Made by a program: the position numbers and the translations under genes
The notes under the pieces: model-generated
What the model saw: only the letters and a program-made list of their open reading frames with translations
The model's database searches: none
What the model was told of the DNA's origin: nothing
Source: Anaeromyxobacteraceae bacterium
Lineage (GTDB): Bacteria; Myxococcota; Myxococcia; Myxococcales; Anaeromyxobacteraceae
DNA: 64,000 nucleotides
Assembly: GCA_035656915.1 (NCBI GenBank)
Contig: DASRRJ010000018.1
Coordinates: forward strand, 49,816 to 113,815
Reading direction: 5' to 3'
Shown here: positions 1 through 64,000 of the stretch, in pieces
How the letters are laid out: the number at the start of each line of letters is the position of its first letter
Position numbering within the stretch: the first letter of the stretch is position 1

Positions 1-438
1 CGCACCGGCGACATCGCCCGGCGCGACGCCGACGGCTATCTCACCTACGTGGGCCGGGCCGACGACGTCTTCAAGAGCTCCGACTACCGCATCAGCCCCT
101 TCGAGCTGGAGAGCGCGCTCATCGAGCACGAGGCGGTGGTGGAGGCGGCGGTGGTGCCGAGCCCGGACCCGATGCGCGGCGCGGTCCCCAAGGCCTTCGT
201 GATCCTGCGCGCCGACCGGCTGCCGGATCGCGCGCTGGCGCTCGACCTCTTCCGCTTCCTGCGGAAGCGGCTCGCTCCCTTCAAGCGGGTGCGGCGCCTG
301 GAGTTCAGCGACCTGCCCAAGACCATCTCCGGCAAGATCCGACGGGTGGAGCTGCGCGAGCTCGAGCAGGCCCGCCGCGCCGCGGGTGAGCGGGGCCCCC
401 AGGAGTACTGGCAGGAGGAGTTCCCCGAGCTCGTGTGA
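1..438 (+). CDS. AMP-dependent synthetase/ligase (acyl-CoA synthetase family), C-terminal fragment; 5' end lies outside the window
   Basis: The reading frame is open from nt 1. The C-terminal region (...RTGDIARRDADGYLTYVGRADDVFKSSDYRISPFELESALIEHEAVVEAAVV...LPKTISGKIRRVEL) matches the conserved C-terminal domain of adenylate-forming enzymes, including the GKI/V-R lysine motif. GC3 is high. Confidence 0.8.
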   Translation, partial: RTGDIARRDADGYLTYVGRADDVFKSSDYRISPFELESALIEHEAVVEAAVVPSPDPMRGAVPKAFVILRADRLPDRALALDLFRFLRKRLAPFKRVRRLEFSDLPKTISGKIRRVELRELEQARRAAGERGPQEYWQEEFPELV

Positions 439-442
439 GCCC

Positions 443-1798
443 TCACCGGGCCCGGGCGAGCGCGGCGTTCACCGTCACCACGTCGACCAGGCCGAGGGCG
501 CCGTAGAGCGCCGGGATCACCGCCTCGGGCGGGTGGCGGCGACGCAGCTCGGCCACCTTGTCGGTGCCGGCCCGGTAGGCGGGCAGGTACATGCGGCCGA
601 GGAGCGGGTGGGGCGCCCAGCCGCCGGCGAGCTTCCTGGCGCGCTCCTCCGAGCAGAGGTACTCGCGCCGCAGCGTGCGGGCCACCTCGGGCGCGGGCGC
701 CCCGTCGTTCCAGGTCAGCCACGCGGCCTGGTTCTTGGCGTCGTCCTGGAGCAGCGAGAGCAGCACCCCGAGCTGCAGGTCGGGGTCGGGGAGGTCGGCC
801 ACCTCGGTCACCCCGTGCGCCAGCAGCAGCGCGTTGTTTGCGATCCCCTCCGAGAGCGCCGCGCCGCGGGTGTTCATGGTGAGGACGGTGGCCTCGAAGC
901 CGAGCGCGCCGGAGAGGTGGCCTGCCTGGAGCAGCGCGAAGGTGCTGACGTGCCCCGGCACCACCTCGTGCGAGACGAGGCTCGCGAGCTCGGGCACCGA
1001 GATCTCGAGGGCGGCGTTGACCTCGTAGGTGGCGTCGTAGAGCGGCCGGCCCGCGGGCGTGCGGGCCCGGCCGAGGTAGTTCATCGACCCGGAGAACCAG
1101 GCGTCGGCGATGGTGAGGAAGCGGACGTTCGCGAGCGGCACGGCGCGCAGCGCGGGCGGGAGGTGCGGGGTGACGTGCCGCGCCGTGCCGGCCTCCAGCT
1201 CGGCGATGAAGGCCTGGGCCAGCATGGGGATCGACTTCGCCGGCACCTTCCGCTCCGCGCGCCAGGCGTCGACGGCGGCGAGGAGTTCCTCCGGCGCGCG
1301 CGACGGGTGCCCGGCGCAGGCGAGGAGCTCCTTCACCCGCTCCAGCTTCTCGGCCGGCCGGGAAGGCTCGGGCGGCTTGCCGGTGGAGGCCTCCACGCAG
1401 CGCGCGAAGGGGACCGGGGGACCGCGCCCGAGCCGCTCCTGCGAGAGCTCCCACATGACCTGCAGCGAGGTGACGAGCCCCTCGAGGTAGGCGCCGCGGA
1501 GGCCGCCCAGGGCGCGGGCCGCCCCGGACACCGCCGCCACCGCGCCCGGCACGTCCACCGCCGAGAGGTAGGCGTCCACCGCGGCCAGGTCGGGCGCGGC
1601 GGCGGAGACCCCGCCGCCCTGGCGAAGCGCTGCCGCGGCCGGGTGCGTGTAGGCGGCCGGGAGCGGCTCGTCGGAGAACCAGGAGTCGGCGATGAAGCGG
1701 CCGGCGCCGGAAGGGTTCATGACGTCGCCGCCCCAGAGCGTGTCGAGGCCGAGGACGGCGGTGGCGAGGGCAGGGGCGAGCCGGGAGTCGGTGCTCAT
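443..1798 (-). CDS. DUF885-like protein (putative metallopeptidase-like, HEVVPGH motif)
   Basis: 451-aa ORF with high GC3. An HE..PGH motif (SHEVVPGHVSTF) resembles the conserved motif of the DUF885 family. No signal peptide is obvious. The family assignment is from memory. Confidence 0.5.
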   Translation of the reverse strand: MSTDSRLAPALATAVLGLDTLWGGDVMNPSGAGRFIADSWFSDEPLPAAYTHPAAAALRQGGGVSAAAPDLAAVDAYLSAVDVPGAVAAVSGAARALGGLRGAYLEGLVTSLQVMWELSQERLGRGPPVPFARCVEASTGKPPEPSRPAEKLERVKELLACAGHPSRAPEELLAAVDAWRAERKVPAKSIPMLAQAFIAELEAGTARHVTPHLPPALRAVPLANVRFLTIADAWFSGSMNYLGRARTPAGRPLYDATYEVNAALEISVPELASLVSHEVVPGHVSTFALLQAGHLSGALGFEATVLTMNTRGAALSEGIANNALLLAHGVTEVADLPDPDLQLGVLLSLLQDDAKNQAAWLTWNDGAPAPEVARTLRREYLCSEERARKLAGGWAPHPLLGRMYLPAYRAGTDKVAELRRRHPPEAVIPALYGALGLVDVVTVNAALARAR

Positions 1799-1894
1799 GC
1801 GAGCGGTATAGCGCGGCGCGAACGTCGAGTCCTGCGAGCGTGGATCGCGGGATCCGAGGAGGCTGATCGCGGCGCGTCCAGGCGAGGCGGTGCT

Positions 1895-2494
1895 TCACCC
1901 CTGCCGCAGCGCCGGGCTGGGCCGCTCGCGCAGCGCGAGGCCGAGCGCCACGCCGGCGGCGAGCCCGCCCAGGTGGGCGGCGTTGTCGATGTAGCCCGAC
2001 ATGAACCCGAGCCCGACGTTGAGGGCCACCACCCAGCCGACGTCCTGGAGGATGAGCCGCCGCGCCTGCGGCGTGAGCCGGCGCCGCGCGCGCACCGCGA
2101 AGCCGAGCAGCGCGCCGAAGAGCGCGAAGATTCCGGCCGAGGCGCCCACCGAGGGGTTGGGCACGAAGGCCACGCTCGCCGCCATGCCCACCGCGCCGCC
2201 CCCGAGGAAGACCAGCAGGAACCTGGGCCGGCCGTAGAGCCGCTCGATCGACGGCCCCACCGAGGCGAGCGCCATGGAGTTGAAGGCGAGGTGCGCCAGG
2301 CCGCCGTGCAGGAAGCTGGCGGTGACGAGCCGCCAGACCTCGCCCGCCAGCACCCGCTCGTTCACCTTGGCGAAGAGCGCGAAGAGCCGCTGCTCCGGGT
2401 CCAGGCTGGTCGCCAGGAAGGCGACGATGAAGAGGCCGATGAGCGCGTAGCTCGCCGGGCCGTCCTCGATCCGCTGGCGGAGCGTGGGCGGCAA
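1895..2494 (-). CDS. Rhomboid family intramembrane serine protease
   Basis: 199 aa, polytopic. It has a GASAG (GxSG) catalytic serine motif, a downstream AHLGG catalytic histidine and an N-x-x-A/L motif in TM2. All are typical of rhomboid proteases. Confidence 0.85.
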   Translation of the reverse strand: MPPTLRQRIEDGPASYALIGLFIVAFLATSLDPEQRLFALFAKVNERVLAGEVWRLVTASFLHGGLAHLAFNSMALASVGPSIERLYGRPRFLLVFLGGGAVGMAASVAFVPNPSVGASAGIFALFGALLGFAVRARRRLTPQARRLILQDVGWVVALNVGLGFMSGYIDNAAHLGGLAAGVALGLALRERPSPALRQG

Positions 2495-2498
2495 GGCG

Positions 2499-3164
2499 CT
2501 ACTTCGTGCCGGGCGCGGCCGGCGGCGGGAACGGCGCCACCGGTCCCCGCGGCGCGCCGGCGGCGTCGAGCCGCTGCAGCGCCTGGCGCGCCTGGAGGGC
2601 GATGGGGCTCGCGGGCTCGGTCTCCAGGATCTTGTTCCAGGCCTTCTTCGCCTTCTCGGGCTGCTTCAGATCGTCGGCGTAGACGATGCCGAGGTTGAAG
2701 AGGCTCTGCATGTGGCGCGGGTCGATCTTGTTCGCCTTCTCGAAGTTGGCGGCCGCCTTGTCGAAGGCCCCGAGCTCCCGGTACATCACGCCCTGGTCGG
2801 TGAGGACGTTCGGGTCGTCGCCCTGCAGCGCGAGCGCCTTGGCGTAGGCATCGATCGACTTCTGCCGCTGGTGCGTGTCGAAGTAGGCGTTGCCGAGCTC
2901 GACCCAGCCCTGGCGGTTCTTGGGATCCTGTGCCACGAGCGCCTGGGAGGCGGCGATCTGCTGCTCCATCGCGGCGGCCGGCGGCTGGGGCGCGCCCTGG
3001 AGGCCCGTGGTGGGGGCGATGGGCGCGGACGAGGGCTCGTTGATCTTCGAGACCACGATGTAGCCGACGAGCAGGGCGACGACGACGCCGACAGCGAAGC
3101 CGAGCACGGTGTTCCGATCCAAGGTGCTACCTCCTCTGGCGGGATCCTCCCGCGAGGGGCGCAT
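2499..3164 (-). CDS. TPR-repeat protein with N-terminal membrane anchor
   Basis: The long ORF 2499-3785 was trimmed to Met208 (ATG at 3164), which precedes a hydrophobic anchor (VLGFAVGVVVALLVGYIVV). It is followed by TPR-like repeats (GWVELGNAYFDTHQRQKSIDAYAKALALQGDDPNVLTDQGVMYRELGAFDKAAANFEKANKIDP...). The upstream part of the ORF is low-complexity junk. Confidence 0.7.
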   Translation of the reverse strand: MRPSREDPARGGSTLDRNTVLGFAVGVVVALLVGYIVVSKINEPSSAPIAPTTGLQGAPQPPAAAMEQQIAASQALVAQDPKNRQGWVELGNAYFDTHQRQKSIDAYAKALALQGDDPNVLTDQGVMYRELGAFDKAAANFEKANKIDPRHMQSLFNLGIVYADDLKQPEKAKKAWNKILETEPASPIALQARQALQRLDAAGAPRGPVAPFPPPAAPGTK

Positions 3165-3208
3165 TGTCGCACGACTCCGGGCGGCCGCCCATCCGTGAAG
3201 TGGCGCCG

Positions 3209-4198
3209 TCAGCGCGGGCGGACCTTCATCCCCTTGCACGGGTCCTCGCGCTCGGCGCCCGGGGTGAAGACCACGTAGTCGAAGGGGAGGGCGGCGGCGG
3301 TGTAGTCCTTGGCGTAGGCCTCGGGGGTGCAGCCGTCCTTGAGGACCTCCACCAGGGCCACCGACACCAGCTTCCGCGCCCGGGCCGCCGGCGGCAGGTA
3401 CCACGGGACCCCGCGGTCGGTCCGGACGTGGCCGGTCCCGGCGATGAGGATCACCGGGCGGCTCGCGCCGGCGGTCGACAGGCTCTCGGCCAGCTGGGCG
3501 TCGCGGGCGCGCTGTCCCAGCACCATCGGGTCGAGGAGCGGCTCGGGGAGCTTGCCGCAGTGCGACTCGGCCATCTCCTCGCGCATCTCCCGGAGCGCCT
3601 CCGGCTCCATGGGCGCCTCGACGGCGCGGCGCAGGTCGGGCGAGAGCGCGGCGGGCCCCTTCGTCACCACCTCCTGCACCTCCTTGCGGACCAGGTTGGC
3701 GGCGATGAGCGGCAGGTCCTCCTCCACCGCGGCGGCGAAGATGGGCCGGTAGAGGGCGAAGGCGGGCCAGCCGCTCTTGTCCCACTGCACCGCGGCCCCG
3801 ACGGCGTCGGCGCTGGCCGGCTTCTTCCGGGCCGCGGCGTCGAGGGCCGCCTGCTTGCCGGTGTCGAGCATCTCGAAGGCGATCGCCGGGTGGCGGCCGG
3901 AGGCGGCGGCGGCGCGCACCAGCCTGGCCTGCAGCAGGTGGTGGTCCGGGTTGTCATGGGTCTCGCCGAGCAGCGCGAAGTCGGCGCCAGCCACGGCCGC
4001 GTCGAGAGCGGCCTGGTCGACGAAGCGCGCCTGCTTCACGTCCCAGATCCTGCCCACCAGCGGGTGGTCGCGGTGCCGCTCGCTCTTCCAGTCGAGCGCG
4101 AGCGCGGGGGCGCCGGGGAGCGGCTTGCAGTGCTGCTGCGAGGCGCAGCCGGCGACGAGCGCGGCCGCGAGGGAGAGCGCGAGCGGGAGGGTTCTCAT
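3209..4198 (-). CDS. ChaN-family (haem-binding uptake, Tiki-like) lipoprotein
   Basis: The signal peptide has a lipobox (LVAGC). Conserved LLGETHDNPDHH and GTGH motifs are typical of the ChaN/Cofac_haem_bdg family. 329 aa. Confidence 0.6.
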   Translation of the reverse strand: MRTLPLALSLAAALVAGCASQQHCKPLPGAPALALDWKSERHRDHPLVGRIWDVKQARFVDQAALDAAVAGADFALLGETHDNPDHHLLQARLVRAAAASGRHPAIAFEMLDTGKQAALDAAARKKPASADAVGAAVQWDKSGWPAFALYRPIFAAAVEEDLPLIAANLVRKEVQEVVTKGPAALSPDLRRAVEAPMEPEALREMREEMAESHCGKLPEPLLDPMVLGQRARDAQLAESLSTAGASRPVILIAGTGHVRTDRGVPWYLPPAARARKLVSVALVEVLKDGCTPEAYAKDYTAAALPFDYVVFTPGAEREDPCKGMKVRPR

Positions 4199-4230
4199 CG
4201 CGCAGTGACATAGCCGCTCCGGGGCGGCGG

Positions 4231-4380
4231 GTCACCCCCTCCCTGGCCCTCCCCCTTCCAGGGAGAGGGGGAAGAGGCGGGCCGCGCGGCACCACCTCGC
4301 GGAGGCGCAGCGCTGCTCTCCCTCCCCGCCGCGCCGACGGGCCGCGGCGCCGCTCTCCCTCCCCGCCGCGCGGGGAGGGG
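4231..4380. repeat. GC-rich intergenic region with imperfect inverted repeat (CCCCTCCCTGG...CCAGGGAGAGGGG), 20-bp direct repeat (GCTCTCCCTCCCCGCCGCGC x2) and hairpin CCCTCCCCGCcgcgcGGGGAGGG
   Basis: Read in the sequence. It lies between the ChaN-like gene start and the small RG-rich gene end. Confidence 0.6.
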
Positions 4381-4421
4381 CGGCCATGAGGACCGCGCCG
4401 CGCCCCGGCGAAGCCGCTGCG

Positions 4422-4724
4422 CTACTGCGGCCGCTTCGGCCAGGGGGAGGCTTCGCCGCGCTCGTCCACGCGGACCCGCTCGTGGCCAGGGCCGCGCCAG
4501 ACGCTGCCGGCGATGACCCGGCGCGGCAGCCAGGGCCAGCTGGCGCGGGCGGCGTCGGAGGTGAAGACGGCCGGGGAGGGAGGGATCTCGGGCGTGCCGG
4601 TGAGCGGCTCGGACACGGGCGCGGGCGCGCGCGGTCCGCGGTTACGCCGGCGGCCGCGGCGCGAGCCGCCACCGCCGCCGCCGCGCGAGCCGGAAGAAGG
4701 GGAGATGAAGTGCAGGTCGTCCAA
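4422..4724 (-). CDS. Small Arg/Gly-rich hypothetical protein (100 aa), TTG start
   Basis: GC3 is about 88% in this frame, against mixed GC3 in the overlapping + ORF. A perfect AAGGAG Shine-Dalgarno sits 7 nt upstream of the TTG start. The ORF starts 17 nt downstream of the tgt-mnmC-like stop on the same strand. Confidence 0.5.
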   Translation of the reverse strand: MDDLHFISPSSGSRGGGGGGSRRGRRRNRGPRAPAPVSEPLTGTPEIPPSPAVFTSDAARASWPWLPRRVIAGSVWRGPGHERVRVDERGEASPWPKRPQ

Positions 4725-4743
4725 GATGCGTCTCCTTGCGAGG

Positions 4744-6741
4744 CTACTCCGCGCCCGCGGCGAGGGCCGTGGGCGCGGTGAACTGCGGGTGCGCGCGGAT
4801 GAGCTCCAGCGCGTCGGCGGAGGCGTCCGCCGGGAACGGGGAGGAGGAGCGGGCGAGCCGGGCCAGCCAGCGCGCGTCGAGCGGCCGCACCAGATCGTCG
4901 CGCGACGTCGCCGCGGCGGTGGTCTCGGCCTTGGGCCCCGAGGCGTCGCCCGCGCCCACGAAGAACCCGGCCAGGAGGAGCGCGCTCCGCACCGCGGTGG
5001 CGGTGCTGTAGGTGAAGAGGGTCGCGCCGGGCGCGCAGCGCAGGCGGACCGCGCGGAACGCGGCGGCTGTCCAGAGCGCCGGGTTCTGCTTGGGAGAGAA
5101 GGGATCCCAGAAGACGAGATCGGCCCGCGCCGGCTCGCGCGCCAGCGCCTCGAGGGCGTCGCCCTCTACCAGCCTCCAGCCGGCGGCCGCCTCCTGGTGG
5201 CGTCCGGTGGCGAGGATCGCCCGGGCCGCGGCGAGGTCCTCGCCGGAGAGGCCGAGCCGGGCGGCGCCCTCGTCGGAGGTCGCGAGCGAGAGCGCGCCAA
5301 GGTCGCGCTCGAAGCTCACCAGCTCCAGCCGGCGCGCGCCGGGCGGCGCCGCGCGGGCGGCGCGCAAGGCGGCGAGGGCGTTCGAGGCGGCCCCGAGCCC
5401 CACGTCGAAGAGCACCAGGGGAGCGCCGCGCTCCGTGAGGCGGGCCGCGAGGCGCGACTGGGCCACGTAGAGCTGCTCCGACTCGGCGGTGGGGCCGATG
5501 ACCGGGTGCATCACCTCGCCCACCACCCGGTCGCGAACCGCGGCCGCGCCCTCGCTCGTCTGCACGATCTCGAAGCGGTCCGGCGGCGGCGGCACCGGGA
5601 CTCCCGGCTGGCGCCCCTCGGGGTCGTGCTCGTGCCGGTCGATGGCCGCGAGCGTCTCCCGGGCGAAGCGCTCGTAGCGCCCCTCCTCGATGGCGGCGCG
5701 GATGCCGCGCATCAGCTCGAGGTAGTGGTGCAGGTTGTGGACGGCGAGCAGCCGCGGCCCGAGCGGCTCCTTGCACTTCATGAGGTGGTGCAGGTAGCCG
5801 CGCGGGTGGGCGCGGCAGGTGGGACAGGCGCAGACGGGGTCGAGCGGCTCCTGCGAGAGCCGGTGATCGCCGCGGGTGAGCCGCACCCGGCCGGTGGAGG
5901 TGAAGGCGGTGCCCTGCCACGCCATGACGGTGGGGATGACGCAGTCGAACATGTCCACGCCGTGCGCGACCATCTCCAGGATGTCGGGCGGGGTGCCCAC
6001 GCCCATCAGGTAGCGCGGCCGGTCCTCCGGGAGCAGCTCCGCCGCGCGGGCCACCACCTCCGAACGTTGGGCGCGGGTGTCGCCGACGGCGAGCCCCCCG
6101 ATGGCGAAGCCATCGAAGGGGTGCTGGGTGAGGAAGCGCGCCGACTCGGTCCGGAGCTCGGGCGAGAGGCCGCCCTGGACGATGGCGAAGAGGGCCTGCT
6201 CCGGGTCCTGCCGCGCGGCGAGGCTGCGCAGCGCCCAGCGGTGGGTGCGCTCCATCGCCTCGCGGATGGCGCTCGGCTCGGCGGTGGAGGGGAGGCAGAT
6301 GTCGAGCACCATCATCACGTCGGAGCCGAGCGCGGTCTGCACCTCGATCGACCGCTCCGGGGAGAGGTGGTGGTAGCGGCAGTCGACGTAGCTCTTGAAG
6401 CGCGCCCCCTCCTCGGTGATGGTCCGGTCCTTCGCGAGCGAGAAGATCTGGAAGCCGCCCGAGTCGGTGAGGATGGGCCGGTCCCAGCCCATGAAGCGGT
6501 GCAGGCCACCGAAGTGGCGCATCGCCTCTGGACCGGGCCGCAGCAGCAGGTGGTAGGTGTTGCCGAGGACGATCTCGGCGCCGAGGCCGCGCAGGTCCTC
6601 GGGCGTGAGGCCGGTGACGGTGGCGCGGGTCCCGACCGGCATGAAGGCCGGGGTCTCCACCCGCCCGTGGGGGGTGGTGAAGGCGCCGCGCCGCGCGCGG
6701 GTCCCCACGTCGCGGGGGCCTGGGTGGAAGCGGAAAGGCAT
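4744..6741 (-). CDS. tgt: Queuine tRNA-ribosyltransferase (Tgt) fused in-frame to an MnmC-like (DUF752) SAM methyltransferase domain
   Basis: The ORF was trimmed to Met140 (ATG at 6741; MPFRFHPGPRDVGTRARRGAFTTPHGRVETPAFMPVGT...). It has the Tgt motifs LTDSGGFQIF, AIVQGGL and the C-terminal Zn site CxCxxC...H. There is no stop before a roughly 280-aa C-terminal extension with DLVFWDPFSPKQNPALWT, which is typical of the MnmC N-terminal methyltransferase domain. 665 aa in total. Confidence 0.75.
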   Translation of the reverse strand: MPFRFHPGPRDVGTRARRGAFTTPHGRVETPAFMPVGTRATVTGLTPEDLRGLGAEIVLGNTYHLLLRPGPEAMRHFGGLHRFMGWDRPILTDSGGFQIFSLAKDRTITEEGARFKSYVDCRYHHLSPERSIEVQTALGSDVMMVLDICLPSTAEPSAIREAMERTHRWALRSLAARQDPEQALFAIVQGGLSPELRTESARFLTQHPFDGFAIGGLAVGDTRAQRSEVVARAAELLPEDRPRYLMGVGTPPDILEMVAHGVDMFDCVIPTVMAWQGTAFTSTGRVRLTRGDHRLSQEPLDPVCACPTCRAHPRGYLHHLMKCKEPLGPRLLAVHNLHHYLELMRGIRAAIEEGRYERFARETLAAIDRHEHDPEGRQPGVPVPPPPDRFEIVQTSEGAAAVRDRVVGEVMHPVIGPTAESEQLYVAQSRLAARLTERGAPLVLFDVGLGAASNALAALRAARAAPPGARRLELVSFERDLGALSLATSDEGAARLGLSGEDLAAARAILATGRHQEAAAGWRLVEGDALEALAREPARADLVFWDPFSPKQNPALWTAAAFRAVRLRCAPGATLFTYSTATAVRSALLLAGFFVGAGDASGPKAETTAAATSRDDLVRPLDARWLARLARSSSPFPADASADALELIRAHPQFTAPTALAAGAE

Positions 6742-58169: not shown

Positions 58170-59195
58170 ATGAGAGTCGTCCATTCCGCACTGCACGCTC
58201 GCCACGACGGGGGCAAGGAACTCTACCGCGGTGAGCTGGTGCCGTGCTTCGAGTCGCCGGCGCGGGCCGACCTCATCCTCCGGGCGGTGCAGCGCGCCGG
58301 CTTCGAGGTGAGCGAGCCTCGCGCCCTCTCCGCGGAGGCGCTCCTAGGGGTCCACGACGCGGGGTTCGTCGAGTTCCTGCGGACCGCTCACCGCGAGTGG
58401 CGGGCCACCGGCAGGGGCGGGTTCATGCTGCCGAGCGCGTTCCCCGCGCGCGGCCTGCGCCGCGATCACGCCCCCTCGGGCATCCACGGGCGGATGGGCT
58501 ACTACTGCTTCGACCCCGGGACGCCGATCGTGGAGGGCACCTGGGACGCCGCGCTCGCGTCGGCCGGGTGCGCGCTCACCGCCGCCGCGCTGGTCGCCGA
58601 GGGCGCCACCAGCGCCTACGCCCTGTGCCGGCCCCCCGGGCACCACGCCGGCCGCGCCGTCTACGGCGGCTACTGCTTCCTCAACAACGCCGCGCTGGCG
58701 GCGCAGCGCCTCCGCGACCTGGGCCTCGGCCGGGTGGCGGTGCTCGACGTGGACGCGCACCACGGCAACGGGACCCAGCAGATCTTCTGGGAGCGCGCCG
58801 ACGTGCTCTACGTCTCGATCCACGGCACCCCCGAGACCGAGTACCCGTACTTCCTCGGCTACGCCGACGAGCGCGGGGCCGGGGCAGGGGAGGGCTTCAC
58901 CCGCAACTTCCCCCTGCCGCGGGAGGCGGCCTGGGCGGAGTACGGCCCCACGCTCGACGCGGCGCTCGACGTCGTGGCCCGGTTCACGCCGGCCGCCCTG
59001 GTGGTCTCGCTCGGCGTGGACACCTTCGCCGGTGATCCGATCAGCCCCATCGCGCTCGAGCGCGAGCACTTTCCGCTCATCGGCCAGCGGCTCGCCACGC
59101 TCCGCGTGCCGACGGTGATCGTCCAGGAGGGCGGTTACGCCCTGGAGGACATCGGGGCGAACGTCGTGGGGGTGCTGAGCGGCTTCGAGGGGTGA
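58170..59195 (+). CDS. Histone deacetylase-family protein (acetoin utilization AcuC / acetylpolyamine amidohydrolase-like)
   Basis: The ORF was trimmed to Met14 (GAGG SD). HDAC motifs are present: PPGHHA, DVDAHHGNGTQ and a Gly-rich loop. Confidence 0.85.
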   Translation: MRVVHSALHARHDGGKELYRGELVPCFESPARADLILRAVQRAGFEVSEPRALSAEALLGVHDAGFVEFLRTAHREWRATGRGGFMLPSAFPARGLRRDHAPSGIHGRMGYYCFDPGTPIVEGTWDAALASAGCALTAAALVAEGATSAYALCRPPGHHAGRAVYGGYCFLNNAALAAQRLRDLGLGRVAVLDVDAHHGNGTQQIFWERADVLYVSIHGTPETEYPYFLGYADERGAGAGEGFTRNFPLPREAAWAEYGPTLDAALDVVARFTPAALVVSLGVDTFAGDPISPIALEREHFPLIGQRLATLRVPTVIVQEGGYALEDIGANVVGVLSGFEG

Positions 59196-59251: not shown

Positions 59252-59989
59252 CTAGCGAGGCGCGCCGCTGCCGCTCATGGCCATGCCGATGACCAGCTGG
59301 ACGAGCACGGGCCTCCCGGGACCGACGTCTGGCGAGACGCGCAGCACGTAGCCCGGGAGCGCGACCCCGCTCCCGCGCAGCGGCGTGTAGACCGCGATCT
59401 CCGGGAAGACTCGCAAGCTTGGCGTGACCTCCATCGAGACCCCGAGCGTGCCGCCAGCGAAGAGCGCGTCGGGGGCATACCCCGAGTTCTTGCCCATCCC
59501 GCTGCCCCACTCTCTCGCGAGCGTGGGGCCGATGACCACCGCATGCTGACCAAAAGCGCCAAAGCGGGCGTCGCCGAGCAGGGTGAGCTTCGCAAGCGCC
59601 ATCTCCCACGCTTCATCATCGCCATTCGAGCCGACGGCGCCCTGGAGGGCTGGAGCGAGCGCGACGTCGAAGCGGTTGCCGCGAAAGACTTGAACGGTCC
59701 CATTGACCTCGATACTCGAGAGCGTGGTCTTCACGCCGAGGTCCAACCATTCGGTGAGCCCATAGCGCACTTGCGCCTCGAGCCCAGGGGAGAGGCGCGC
59801 CTGCTCGGTGGTGTCGGTCGGCGAGGGGCGCGCTCCGTTCAGGAACGCCGTGGCTCCCGAGACCGGTCGAGCCGTGATCCCGGCCGCCGCGACATCCACG
59901 CGGAAGACGCCGGGGTCGACCGTCCGCGCCTCCTTCAAGCTCGAATACGAAGCACACCCGGAAACGAGGGCGATGAAGACGGTTGGCAT
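59252..59989 (-). CDS. Lipoprotein, hypothetical
   Basis: The ORF was trimmed to Met66 (MPTVFIALVSGCAS, lipobox VSGC). It is 245 aa with a beta-rich pattern. The upstream 65 codons are junk. Confidence 0.55.
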   Translation of the reverse strand: MPTVFIALVSGCASYSSLKEARTVDPGVFRVDVAAAGITARPVSGATAFLNGARPSPTDTTEQARLSPGLEAQVRYGLTEWLDLGVKTTLSSIEVNGTVQVFRGNRFDVALAPALQGAVGSNGDDEAWEMALAKLTLLGDARFGAFGQHAVVIGPTLAREWGSGMGKNSGYAPDALFAGGTLGVSMEVTPSLRVFPEIAVYTPLRGSGVALPGYVLRVSPDVGPGRPVLVQLVIGMAMSGSGAPR

Positions 59990-61773: not shown

Positions 61774-61961
61774 CGGCAGTGCCCTCCGTCGAGGCCGCCC
61801 CGGCCTCCTGCATTCCGGCCGAGCATGCTCCGACGTATAGCACGGCGTAGCGGACCCTCGGCCGCCGGCGCGGCGCGGTCGGTCCGCTTTGGAGTAGAGC
61901 AGCCCAGCGGAGTTGTGCCGCCACCTCTTCGAAGGAATACATCCTTCGCCGGAGGGCAGTC

Positions 61962-62429
61962 ATGAACGAGGCGAACACGATTGCTGCTGGTACCGCTGTT
62001 CACATCCACCAGGACGAGGGCGAGGCATTCCGGCTGGGACCCCTGGAAATCCTCGTGAAGGAGAACGGCGCGGGGACGCGGATGAATCTGGCGGTGGCCG
62101 AATTTCGCGGGAGCTCGTTCCGAATCCCGCCGCACGTCCACACCGAGCACGACGAAACGATCTACGTCCTGGAGGGTGGGATGGGGGTGAATCTCGGAGA
62201 CCAGACGTTCACTGCCACCGCGGGCAGCTCGTTCACGATCCCCGTCAATGTTCCGCATGCGATCTGGAACGAGAGTGGAGCCCGGGCGCGCTTCCTCAAC
62301 ATCATCGTCGCCGCGCGCTACCTCGACTACTTCCGTGAGATGGCTGCGGCAGCGACTACGGGTCTGCCGCCGCCGGGCGTGATCGCGCGGGTCATGGGGC
62401 ACTACGGGCTCCGGCCTGTGACGCAGTAG
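61962..62429 (+). CDS. Cupin-domain protein
   Basis: GGAGGG SD. Cupin motifs are G(X)5HxH(X)3,4E(X)6G (PPHVHTEHDETIYVLEGGMG) and a second His at P..VPHAI. Confidence 0.8.
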   Translation: MNEANTIAAGTAVHIHQDEGEAFRLGPLEILVKENGAGTRMNLAVAEFRGSSFRIPPHVHTEHDETIYVLEGGMGVNLGDQTFTATAGSSFTIPVNVPHAIWNESGARARFLNIIVAARYLDYFREMAAAATTGLPPPGVIARVMGHYGLRPVTQ

Positions 62430-62820
62430 CCGATTTCCGATCCCCTGCGCACGCGGCATGGCGACGGCGGACGCCAGCAGGCCCGCTCGCGCAGACCCGC
62501 GGAGCCGCCATACTTCGCGAGCTGCTCCTCGTGAATGAGGAGCACCTCTTCGACGTCGAGAAAGGCGGGTCGGTCACTTCGCGAGCTTCCGGAGGGTGGC
62601 GTCGTGCGTCGCCATCGCGCGCTGCACGGCGGCCTTCACCCTGGCTCGCTTGGCGCCGCGGATGGGCTCGATGATGAGCCGGGACCCATCCGTGCGCATC
62701 TCGAGCTCGGTCTCGCGGTCGATGGTCCAGGAGCTCGAGGATGGGCTTCTCTCGGGACGCTGCCGTCAGCGGCCTGGCGGGGGTGCGCTGTCCCGCACGT
62801 GCCTGGGCTCTCCGGTCGGG

Positions 62821-62849
62821 TTGACGCATCGCTATGACATAGCTATGCT
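62821..62849 (+). promoter_or_regulatory. Sigma70-like promoter (TTGACG-17 nt-TATGCT) overlapping a perfect palindrome GCTATGaCATAGC upstream of brnT
   Basis: Read in the sequence. The -35 box is at 62821-62826, the palindrome at 62831-62843 and the -10 box at 62844-62849. It lies in a locally lower-GC region, 62 nt upstream of the brnT ATG. Confidence 0.45.
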
Positions 62850-62910
62850 CTGGTCAGTGAAGCTGGTCACCGAACCAGACGTCGCCCCTTGGCTGGGCAA
62901 GCATCCCGCC

Positions 62911-63180
62911 ATGGATTGGGACGCCGGGAACAGCACGAAGAGCCAGGCGAAGCATGGGTTCAGCACTGGCGACGTGGAGTCCCTGCTCGATGCGCCGGTG
63001 CTCTTCGCCGGTCGCATCGTCGAGCCGGCGCATGAGGAGGCACGTTACCTGCTCCTCGGCGTGACCGCCAGCGGTCGCCGTGCGGCCCTGATCTTCGCGC
63101 GCCGCGGCGACACGCTTCGGCCGATCAGCTGCCGCGCGATGCGGAAGAAGGAGAAGGAGGCGTACGATGCAGCGACGTAA
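62911..63180 (+). CDS. brnT: BrnT-family toxin (DUF497 ribonuclease toxin)
   Basis: MDWDAGNSTKSQAKHGFSTGDVESLL...ARYLLLGVTASGRRAALIFARRGDTLRPISCRAMRKKEKEAY matches the BrnT pattern (WD..K...N..KHG.SF.E...; RIISAR...E...Y). An in-frame alternative ATG at 62845 lies inside the promoter, so it is less likely. Confidence 0.7.
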   Translation: MDWDAGNSTKSQAKHGFSTGDVESLLDAPVLFAGRIVEPAHEEARYLLLGVTASGRRAALIFARRGDTLRPISCRAMRKKEKEAYDAAT

Positions 63181-63436
63181 GACCACGGGCGCGCGGAAGA
63201 TGAAGAACGCGGCCACTCACCGCGACGCCACACTGCGCGAGTTCGAGAAGCAGGACCTCGGCGATGACATCGCGGCGGCGGGGACGGCCGTCGTGGTCCG
63301 TCCGCAGCGACCGACGTCCATCCTGCTCAGCGACGAGCTCAAGGCTGCGCTTCGGAAGCGCGGTCAGGAACTCGGTGTCGGGTACCAGACCGCCGCCAAG
63401 ATGATCCTCGCCAAGTACGTCAACGCGAAATTGTAG
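63167..63436 (+). CDS. brnA: BrnA-family antitoxin (CopG/RHH-like)
   Basis: GGAGAAGGAGG SD. Its start overlaps the brnT 3' end by 14 nt. The C-terminal RHH-like region is SILLSDELKAALRKRGQELGVGYQTAAKMILAKYV. The toxin-first order is typical of BrnTA. Confidence 0.7.
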   Translation: MQRRKTTGARKMKNAATHRDATLREFEKQDLGDDIAAAGTAVVVRPQRPTSILLSDELKAALRKRGQELGVGYQTAAKMILAKYVNAKL

Positions 63437-63619
63437 CAGGCTAGAGTCACTTGGAGGCGAGCGCGGCGCCGAGCGTCGGGGTTCGCTCGCCACGGCAGCA
63501 GCGGTCGAGGCTGGCCTTGGTGACGCCGAGGGCCTTAGCAACCTGCGTCGAGAGCCTTCATCGCCGGGGATCGTCCGAAAGGCGGGACCGTTCACAAGCT
63601 GAACGAGACTGCCGGTGCT

Positions 63620-63655
63620 CAGGGACCTCGTCAGGGACCTGCTCCGGTCCCTGAC
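63620..63655. repeat. Direct repeat CAGGGACCT x2 and a perfect 10-bp inverted repeat GTCAGGGACC-tgctcc-GGTCCCTGAC (hairpin)
   Basis: Read in the sequence, in the 500-bp non-coding stretch downstream of brnA. No T-tract follows, so it is not a canonical intrinsic terminator. Confidence 0.6.
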
Positions 63656-63945
63656 GAAATCCCGAGTCGAATCATCACGGTAAATGGTGGAGGCGCCGGG
63701 AATCGAAATTTACTGTACGTGAACGGCTAACCTCGCGATGGTGCACGCCTTTCGTCGGGAAAGCCTTCTCGCTCAGTGAGTATCGGTTGTCGGCGTCGTC
63801 CACGGCAGGCAACGCCAGTCGACGTGGATCGGCCTCGGTCTTGGAGACATTCTGGAGACCATGCGTGATCGGTTAGCACGCCCATCCGCGCTTCAAGGTC
63901 GCTCTGCCGACGTTGGGATCCAGCGCTTCTCGTGAGAGGAGACGA

Positions 63946-64000
63946 TGCCATTTCCGGAGCTGCGCCGCATCGGGGACCTCGCCCAGGAGCGCGGCGACAA
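63946..64000 (+). CDS. Start of an unknown protein-coding gene (MPFPELRRIGDLAQERGD...), truncated by the window end
   Basis: The ATG is preceded by GAGAGGAGA. Only 18 codons are visible. Confidence 0.3.

Follow-up and report, generated by a model that had tools for sequence, protein, structure and literature searches.

The last ~2.2 kb of a 64,000-nt stretch of DNA from an Anaeromyxobacteraceae bacterium (contig DASRRJ010000018.1, positions 49,816 to 113,815; this whole stretch is hereafter called the window) is likely an accretion zone lying beside an integration site at the transfer-messenger RNA (tmRNA) gene, ssrA, in which one live toxin–antitoxin (TA) cassette, brnT-brnA (brnTA), is found among decayed pieces of other genes. 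An earlier note on the same DNA had suggested that this end is a horizontally acquired islet, or an integration scar, that carries a BrnT/BrnA module followed by a structured non-coding stretch. Direct evidence for the scar surmised in that note was found in an exact 23-nt orphan copy of the 3′ end of a tmRNA gene, a feature that had gone unseen in the first reading. The coordinates of this and the other features are collected in Table 1.

An orphan ssrA 3′ end at the right end of the window

The 23-mer TTCGATTCCCGGCGCCTCCACCA, on the minus strand, occurs once in the window and did not appear in shuffled sequences, even when up to three mismatches were allowed. When viral contigs were scanned, exact copies were found in 16 loci; in 8 of these a standard tmRNA gene, as called by ARAGORN, ended in exactly these 23 nt, and the 23-mer lay inside three further calls of the permuted type. 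In two loci (L086 and L090) it was present without the preceding T-stem GGACCCGGG and no tmRNA was called, as in attachment-site duplicates. In the window, the bases preceding it read gtaaat rather than the T-stem GGACCCGGG, and running ARAGORN and Rfam on the whole 64 kb returned no tmRNA, no tRNA and no Rfam family; that is, the window contains a direct repeat identical to a tmRNA gene 3′ end, without the gene body. A reading of the 23-mer as a fragment of a tRNA gene (Tyr or Ser) was rejected: the tRNAs from 84 loci gave no match, and the sequence is of tmRNA type, with a G3-U70 pair. To judge from its sequence, the 23-nt copy is a repeat of the attachment site, of the kind that genomic islands usually leave when they integrate at a tmRNA gene; the integration of islands and prophages into the ssrA 3′ end is common. 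In elements that integrate at this site, the T-loop is the canonical crossover region (PMC3146451), and the topology of such integrations places the element to the right of base 63707 and the intact ssrA farther right. By analogy, ssrA and an integrase gene would both be present to the right.

A probable further trace of the gene is seen on the left of the repeat. A perfect 10-bp hairpin (63630-63639/63646-63655), which had been noticed in the first reading, was found to extend to 18 bp; its stem is uninterrupted in a minus-strand RNA through G-U pairs, while A-C mismatches occupy the same positions on the plus strand. The folding energy calculated for the minus strand was −51.7 kcal/mol (111-nt stretch; z = −4.8), and the short direct repeats that had also been mentioned (TCAGGGACCT, at 63619 and 63631) belong to the stem. 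This hairpin is probably the former ssrA terminator. The idea that the entire stretch 63437-63945 forms a structured RNA element was rejected, since this one hairpin seems to account for most of the fold z values obtained (−4.1 and −2.1), and since the stretch was found to contain a gene remnant as well as the attachment-site repeat. Thus, although the hairpin, the direct repeats and the lack of any intact open reading frame (ORF) with a family match were as originally described, what had been taken for a structured non-coding stretch consists mostly of decayed genes, plus one hairpin and the attachment-site repeat.

Two public contigs were 100% identical to the window across the overlaps fetched. 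The first, JGI 3300035523 Ga0376481_000077 (280 kb), stops at window base 63986, and the second, Logan SRR11794808_42804, at window base 63672. That these independent assemblies both end no more than ~330 nt apart, just past the TA module and around the ssrA repeat, suggests that an element immediately to the right is variable or repeated, or that the population is heterogeneous there. Exact scans of genome and metagenome contigs with either the last 59 nt of the window or the junction between the repeat and its flank produced no match, and look-ups for identical cupin or BrnA proteins returned the same two contigs only. To the right of the repeat, where the element would lie, an ORF (MPFPELRRIGDLAQERGD...) starts at 63946 behind a strong Shine-Dalgarno sequence (GAGAGGAGACG) and continues past base 64000; of the genes on the island side, it would be the one nearest the repeat.

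The compositional deviation reported for this end was borne out. The G+C (GC) content of the last 2.2 kb is 0.66, compared with a window mean of 0.741 (overall ~74%; z = −3.3 to −3.9 for segments of 0.5-2.2 kb), and this stretch, far from falling within the variation of its surroundings, is the GC minimum of the window. The drop had been placed after ~62.4 kb; the low-GC right end is real, but its onset coincides with a cupin-domain gene at ~61.95 kb, and the stretch 62430-62820 has a GC content of 0.708. The GC content at third codon positions (GC3) is 0.81-0.86 for the cupin gene, brnT and brnA, versus 0.92-0.98 for most genes in the window. Another low-GC spot, at 13-14 kb, lies within a 1036-aa gene with a GC3 of 0.97, so the low GC there stems from amino-acid composition and not from a foreign origin. 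Given a 245-aa hypothetical gene at 59252-59989 (minus strand; no Pfam match; GC 0.686, GC3 0.84), compositional atypicality may begin patchily ~2.5 kb to the left of the region originally flagged.

Several points weigh against the proposed integration at ssrA. Neither an intact ssrA nor an integrase gene is visible within the window, both being expected beyond base 64000, and the identity of the 23-mer with the ssrA of the host is deduced from the wide occurrence of this 3′ end. A degenerate second copy of the ssrA repeat (up to 6/23 mismatches), such as would mark the left boundary of an older island, was looked for in the window and not found, and the hairpin lacks a U-tract. The 23 nt might then be a chance match, or the leftover of an unrelated rearrangement, with the low GC reflecting relaxed intergenic or pseudogene DNA; the shortness of the match, the absence of a visible recombinase gene or ssrA, and the fact that generic T-loop...CCA patterns are not rare would all agree with this. 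Such an explanation is nevertheless very improbable, since the match to real tmRNA gene ends is exact and was not reproduced in the shuffles, begins at the very T-loop at which crossover canonically occurs (PMC3146451), and is accompanied by a strand-matched hairpin at terminator distance. In addition, two assemblies break here, and the intact cupin, brnT and brnA genes are also low in GC3, hence pseudogene drift is not the only source of the low GC.

A brnT-brnA cassette with a conserved promoter region

The earlier identification of a brnT toxin gene was confirmed. The product matched PF04365 (DUF497) with 54.3 bits (cutoff 34.5; E = 1.8e-14) over the complete profile (positions 1-77/77), and the family was present in 120/120 BrnT homologues among the matches listed. 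An AlphaFold2 model built from a 35-sequence alignment had a pLDDT of 91.9. When used in a Foldseek search, it gave two significant matches, both with a probability of 1.00: 7vd7_A, a Salmonella toxin (E = 1e-5, TM 0.66/0.74), and Brucella abortus BrnT, 3u97 (E = 1.4e-4, TMt 0.72); the third match had an E value of 0.02. The model has the BrnT fold, with a four-stranded antiparallel sheet on short helices in a RelE-like topology, to which a conserved 20-aa N-terminal extension adds a strand plus a helix. In the alignment, W-D, H33, E61 and R63 are invariant, and K32, G34, E99 and E101 nearly so; the residues of B. abortus BrnT involved in catalysis or toxicity are Asp6, Glu7, Lys9, Arg41 and Glu78. 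From its sequence and its modelled fold, the toxin is a true member of the BrnT family. The PDB sequence search with BrnT was barely detectable (E = 0.36), the NCBIfam search of BrnT and BrnA gave no match, and no BrnT relatives were found in viral contigs. A 99% identical copy (P0001) is present on a 113.8-kb contig of an NCBI Anaeromyxobacteraceae metagenome-assembled genome (MAG).

The toxin-first order, the 14-nt overlap (brnT stop at 63178-63180, brnA ATG at 63167) and the strong Shine-Dalgarno sequence of brnA (GGAGAAGGAGG, at 63150-63160) were as first described. The arrangement is that of a type II TA operon: the two genes are small, co-oriented and overlapping, share one promoter and occur as a pair in every homologous locus examined. 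Homologues of the antitoxin are 77-97% identical, and brnT is always upstream. When compared with the Pfam FitA-like ribbon-helix-helix (RHH) family, the antitoxin gave an E value of 0.041; a weak RHH match recurs in 29/35 of its homologues, and a weak match to PF14384 in 30/35 (best E = 0.003). In the AlphaFold2 model, its C-terminal part forms a strand (residues 52-54) and two helices (56-69 and 73-88), on which the RHH chains of CopG, Arc, FitA and CopA(SO) superpose at 2-2.5 Å, although not significantly. The PDB sequence search with BrnA returned nothing meaningful.

The σ70-like promoter proposed upstream of brnT was also confirmed, as the sole such site in the 2.3 kb between 61700 and 64000, against 0.2 in shuffled sequences. 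The palindrome reported in its spacer, GCTATGaCATAGC, is present exactly there (62831-62843) and is conserved across loci. It results from two boxes, ATCGCTAT at 62828-62835 and ATAGCTAT at 62839-62846, 11 bp apart, which jointly form the inverted repeat. A CTAT-N3-ATAG core is kept in 4/5 DNA lineages; in eight further homologues the same DNA is found translated as '..SYDIAM..' ("LT.SYDIAML") in over-extended, miscalled N-termini. This conservation exceeds the needs of the −35 and −10 elements. Judged by its conservation and position, the two-box inverted repeat is a putative operator. A second perfect palindrome, GCGATGACATCGC, 85% identical to that of the promoter, occurs at 63261-63273 inside brnA (codons G-D-D-I-A). 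It was considered as a second operator and rejected; in loci L003 and L004 the corresponding sequence (GACGACATCGC) is not a palindrome, which makes a coincidence probable.

The start of BrnT is called differently by gene callers, the product being given as 111, 107 or 89 aa (window positions 62845, 62857 and 62911; loci L001, L004, L104, L109), the 111-aa call beginning inside the −10 element; some metagenomic calls extend still farther upstream, translating the operator as 'SYDIAM'. The ATG at 62845 and that at 62911 were ruled out, since in L106 the former, which lies within the −10, does not share the reading frame of brnT, and in L003 the latter reads ACG. The GTG lies 6-7 nt after the −10 in five loci (7 nt in the window), and the 20 residues that follow it are conserved, with synonymous changes. 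Together, the conserved residues and the unusable ATGs point to GTG 62857 as the conserved start of BrnT, and the toxin mRNA is therefore most likely leaderless.

Hundreds of close homologues of BrnT and BrnA were found (70-97% identical); the best matches of BrnT, like those of the cupin protein, carry the names Anaeromyxobacteraceae or Anaeromyxobacter. The cassette, of ~625 bp, is present in at least five unrelated genomic contexts, and its DNA homology runs from ~8 nt before the −35 to the brnA stop, or at most 15 nt beyond. In five independent loci the −35, the inverted repeat (ATAGCTAT-type boxes), the −10 (TATGCT or TATGTT) and the spacing to the GTG are all kept. The contexts include a PIN/VapC pair (L003); an AbiE/TIR/Replic_Relax region near tRNA-Pro in an Anaeromyxobacter sp. 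MAG (L004; DASVZX010000144.1, 1-13000); imuB-dnaE2 (L103; ENA ERZ25039527 contig_13312, 210-6267); and a site between genes for an amine oxidase and a TPR protein (L109-L116). The neighbours in L004 comprise AbiEi/AbiEii, a CAP12-PCTIR TIR protein, an HTH_17 gene, a Replic_Relax protein and tRNA-Pro, and resemble a defence or mobile island. In L103 the cassette directly adjoins a gene pair for an ImuB-like (IMS) protein and a DnaE2-type polymerase, a damage-inducible mutagenesis cassette. The BrnA protein encoded in L106 is the same as that in L107, and the upstream sequences of the two loci agree as well, but they diverge completely from 15 nt past the brnA stop; by this comparison, the point of divergence is a recombination junction at the edge of the cassette. 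It might be imagined that brnTA is a discrete mobile cassette that spreads among sites in Anaeromyxobacteraceae with no recognisable recombinase, repeats or target duplications, and that the leaderless GTG toxin message and the 20-aa extension serve an undescribed control of the toxin:antitoxin ratio or a sensing of ribosome state, but this is a speculation to which little credence is given.

Not all the evidence favours a functional, self-regulated cassette. With regard to the antitoxin, the pairing described in the earlier note stands, but its match to the Pfam BrnA family, PF14384 (DUF4415), reached only 16.1 bits, below the cutoff of 26.1 (E = 0.015), and its model was of low confidence (mean pLDDT 59) and yielded no Foldseek match at E < 1. 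The protein was therefore filed as BrnA-like rather than as a confirmed family member; its sequence and model would fit a divergent RHH protein of this kind. Perfect palindromes with 6-bp arms are, moreover, common (234 in the window, and 5 between 61800 and 64000 against 3.9 expected), so that the promoter palindrome is not significant by itself and draws its support from conservation across loci. Finally, the antitoxin of a BrnT-like system of Acidovorax citrulli showed no promoter binding (PMC10714953). These results, and the fact that the neighbouring genes are pseudogenes, could indicate that brnTA is itself decaying or non-toxic and that the upstream repeat is plain promoter sequence to which no repressor binds. 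This is quite unlikely, however, since both ORFs are intact and share 73-97% identity with hundreds of homologues, showing synonymous changes and no variation at core residues, since the BrnT model is very confident, and since the inverted repeat is kept to a greater extent than the promoter elements would require.

Decayed and patchy neighbours of the cassette

The remnant that lies convergent with brnA belongs to the XRE family of helix-turn-helix regulators (Pfam HTH_31, E = 3.2e-5; HTH_3, E = 5.8e-4; NCBIfam HigA, E = 0.067); tblastn against plasmids gave weak matches only.

Upstream of the brnTA promoter lie the remains of another TA pair. The MazE/AbrB-type antitoxin has a frameshift near 62724 and, as seen with tblastn, lacks the N-terminal VGNSLGIVI segment. 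It has 68 homologues at E ≤ 1e-3 (best 84% identity, E = 1.2e-17), of which intact 75-aa versions match PF04014 (MazE_antitoxin). Its stop overlaps the start of a Doc (death-on-curing) toxin gene (GTGA), which is truncated within ~15 nt of the cupin gene. The frameshift-corrected Doc peptide matches annotated plasmid Doc toxins (best E = 3e-5, 54% identity), with a Doc or Fic annotation in 21/25 of the matches listed. Against Pfam Fic/DOC the remnant gave an E value of 0.04, and no intact Fic/Doc domain with the catalytic motif was found in it; read from its sequence, the fragment is a pseudogene that would not be capable of function. PDB sequence searches with the Doc and MazE-type remnants gave nothing meaningful. 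The closest relative of the MazE-type antitoxin (L119; NCBI JBFONC010065979.1, 935-1285) has 88% nucleotide identity over window positions 62567-62751; there, the antitoxin, called as an ORF with an aberrant long N-terminus, is followed by an HTH_31/Peptidase_M78 (ImmA/IrrE-like) gene and not by Doc.

The cupin gene is a patch of a single gene. Its product is 85% identical to that of Anaeromyxobacter oryzae, but the DNA homology is limited to 61948-62431 and the flanks are unrelated; the cupin loci of A. oryzae and Anaeromyxobacter terrae have nothing but this gene in common with the window. Farther to the left, a histone-deacetylase-family gene (58170-59195) is 83% identical to that of an Anaeromyxobacteraceae MAG and 75-79% identical to those of Archangium, Cystobacter and Myxococcus, and no neighbour is shared. 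When this gene was used as an anchor to search the GTDB species-representative genomes, 80 loci were recovered, none with another flanking gene in common; in the nearest relative, the MAG at 83%, the histone deacetylase gene is the only one in common. The possibility, raised in the earlier note as one that would speak against horizontal gain, that the TA pair is conserved at this locus across the genus thus received no support among the relatives examined; other surroundings were found for the pair and for each of its neighbours.

Table 1. Features of the right end of the window (positions are those of the window)
Feature	Position	Strand	Evidence or remarks
Cupin-domain gene, single-gene patch	61962-62429	+	Pfam Cupin_2, E = 6e-16; GC 0.645, GC3 0.81
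Doc (death-on-curing) toxin pseudogene	62445-62577	−	~46 N-terminal codons left, two frameshifts
MazE/AbrB-type antitoxin pseudogene	62574-62751	−	C-terminal 50 codons (two-thirds) intact
brnTA promoter	62821-62849	+	−35 TTGACG (62821-62826), 17-nt spacer, −10 TATGCT (62844-62849)
Putative BrnA/BrnTA operator	62828-62846		Two 8-bp boxes, 11 bp apart, overlapping the −10
brnT, 107 aa, predicted ribonuclease toxin	62857-63180	+	Pfam PF04365, AlphaFold2, Foldseek
brnA-like antitoxin, 89 aa	63167-63436	+	Sub-threshold PF14384; always 3′ of brnT in homologous loci
XRE-family helix-turn-helix remnant, convergent with brnA	63447-63561	−	No usable start, frameshift
18-bp stem-loop	63622-63663	−	21 nt downstream (minus strand) of the ssrA fragment
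Orphan ssrA 3′ end	63685-63707	−	T-loop, 3′ T-stem, acceptor strand, ACCA; exact 23-mer TTCGATTCCCGGCGCCTCCACCA
DNA right of the repeat (presumed island side)	63708-64000	+	GC 0.60, lowest of the window

How these pieces came to lie together could be explained in more than one way. Everything from the cupin gene through the remnants and brnTA might be the decayed cargo of an older ssrA island, accreted in tandem to the left of the repeat and with its distal repeat eroded. From ~61.95 kb up to the repeat, GC and GC3 stay low without a break; islands typically carry TA modules and XRE regulators; homologues of the cupin piece, of the antitoxin piece and of brnTA are all found in unrelated surroundings; and both tandem ssrA islands and 'fixed' former islands have been documented (PMC3146451). 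Set against this, the window holds no second ssrA-like repeat even at 6/23 mismatches, no integrase or transposase remnant was detected between 61.8 and 63.7 kb, and the separate homology boundaries of the pieces fit a piecemeal gain equally well. An older island is thus a tentative explanation, somewhat doubtful but to be kept in mind; the DNA to the left of the repeat would be either such an accreted island or the native downstream flank of ssrA.

Proposed origin and mode of action

In the preferred explanation, that of piecemeal accretion beside an ssrA integration site, a site-specific recombinase would have inserted an element into the 3′ end of a minus-strand ssrA gene located past base 64000. 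The insertion would have left the displaced 23-nt ssrA 3′ end behind, still followed by its terminator hairpin, and the inserted element would start at 63708 and extend rightward out of the window. The left side would be made up of pieces about the size of a cassette, each gained independently and now preserved to a different degree: the XRE remnant, the intact brnT-brnA, the frameshifted MazE-type antitoxin with the truncated Doc, and the cupin patch.

The surviving brnTA would act as a type II TA system expressed from its σ70-type promoter. Transcription would start 6-7 nt after the −10, giving a leaderless mRNA that opens with the GTG of brnT. BrnT would be a RelE-like ribonuclease that halts translation, and BrnA would bind and neutralise it. 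The RHH domain of BrnA, alone or in the complex, may bind the two ATAGCTAT-type boxes in the spacer and −10, thus repressing the operon. The weak, leaderless GTG of the toxin, compared with the strong Shine-Dalgarno sequence and ATG of brnA, would favour an excess of antitoxin.

The biology proposed is ordinary: a typical type II TA cassette that has survived among decayed pieces next to an ssrA attachment-site repeat, and its significance beyond annotation is small. It does provide a worked example of a tmRNA-gene hotspot seen from the flank side, with an orphan repeat, a terminator, a TA graveyard and one survivor, and it corrects the start codon of BrnT where gene callers conflict. Modestly new are the putative operator with its two conserved boxes, the GTG start that is probably leaderless, the N-terminal extension of 20 aa in this BrnT subfamily and the tight boundaries of the cassette. 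A large uncharacterised myxobacterial BrnTA subfamily thereby gains an operator open to testing (a pair of ATAGCTAT boxes, 11 bp apart, over the −10) and a probable leaderless toxin mRNA. Since the contig end is probably an island junction, it could also be useful for binning and for locating the adjacent contig.

Comparison with known systems

For BrnTA, a 2:2 complex and RNase activity have been published, as has binding of the promoter by BrnA and by BrnTA (PMC5086665, PMC10714953). The cassette in the window resembles B. abortus BrnTA (PDB 3U97) and the Salmonella toxin 7VD7 in its toxin-first overlapping operon and in the PF04365 family and fold of the toxin; the antitoxin may have a C-terminal RHH-like domain, and the inverted repeat in the promoter would fit the published autoregulation (PMC5086665, PMC10714953). 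It differs in that BrnT has ~25% fold-alignment identity to the solved toxins and carries the 20-aa N-terminal extension, in the probably leaderless GTG mRNA, and in the sub-threshold BrnA; what is known of it comes from sequence and models.

The remnants at 62445-62751 recall Phd/Doc-type modules with an AbrB/MazE-fold antitoxin in their antitoxin-then-toxin order and GTGA stop/start overlap, and the Doc remnant retains the N-terminal motif EEVLxIHxxxLxxYGGxxGLR; the pairing of an AbrB/MazE antitoxin with Doc is also annotated on Deinococcus plasmids. Unlike those modules, both genes in the window are dead, the antitoxin being frameshifted and N-terminally deleted, and Doc being reduced to ~46 codons with two frameshifts.

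Williams is said to have written of 'traffic at the tmRNA gene'. The ssrA-specific genomic islands of Dehalococcoides, the ssrA-GIs (McMurdie et al. 2011, PMC3146451), offer the closest parallel for the right end of the window. Unlike in those islands, the distal repeat alone is visible here, with ssrA, the integrase gene and the body of the island presumably lying outside the window. The likeness extends to an orphan ssrA 3′-end repeat of ~20-23 nt that starts in the T-loop, to the low-GC, non-syntenic DNA alongside it, and to the accumulation of foreign genes downstream of ssrA.

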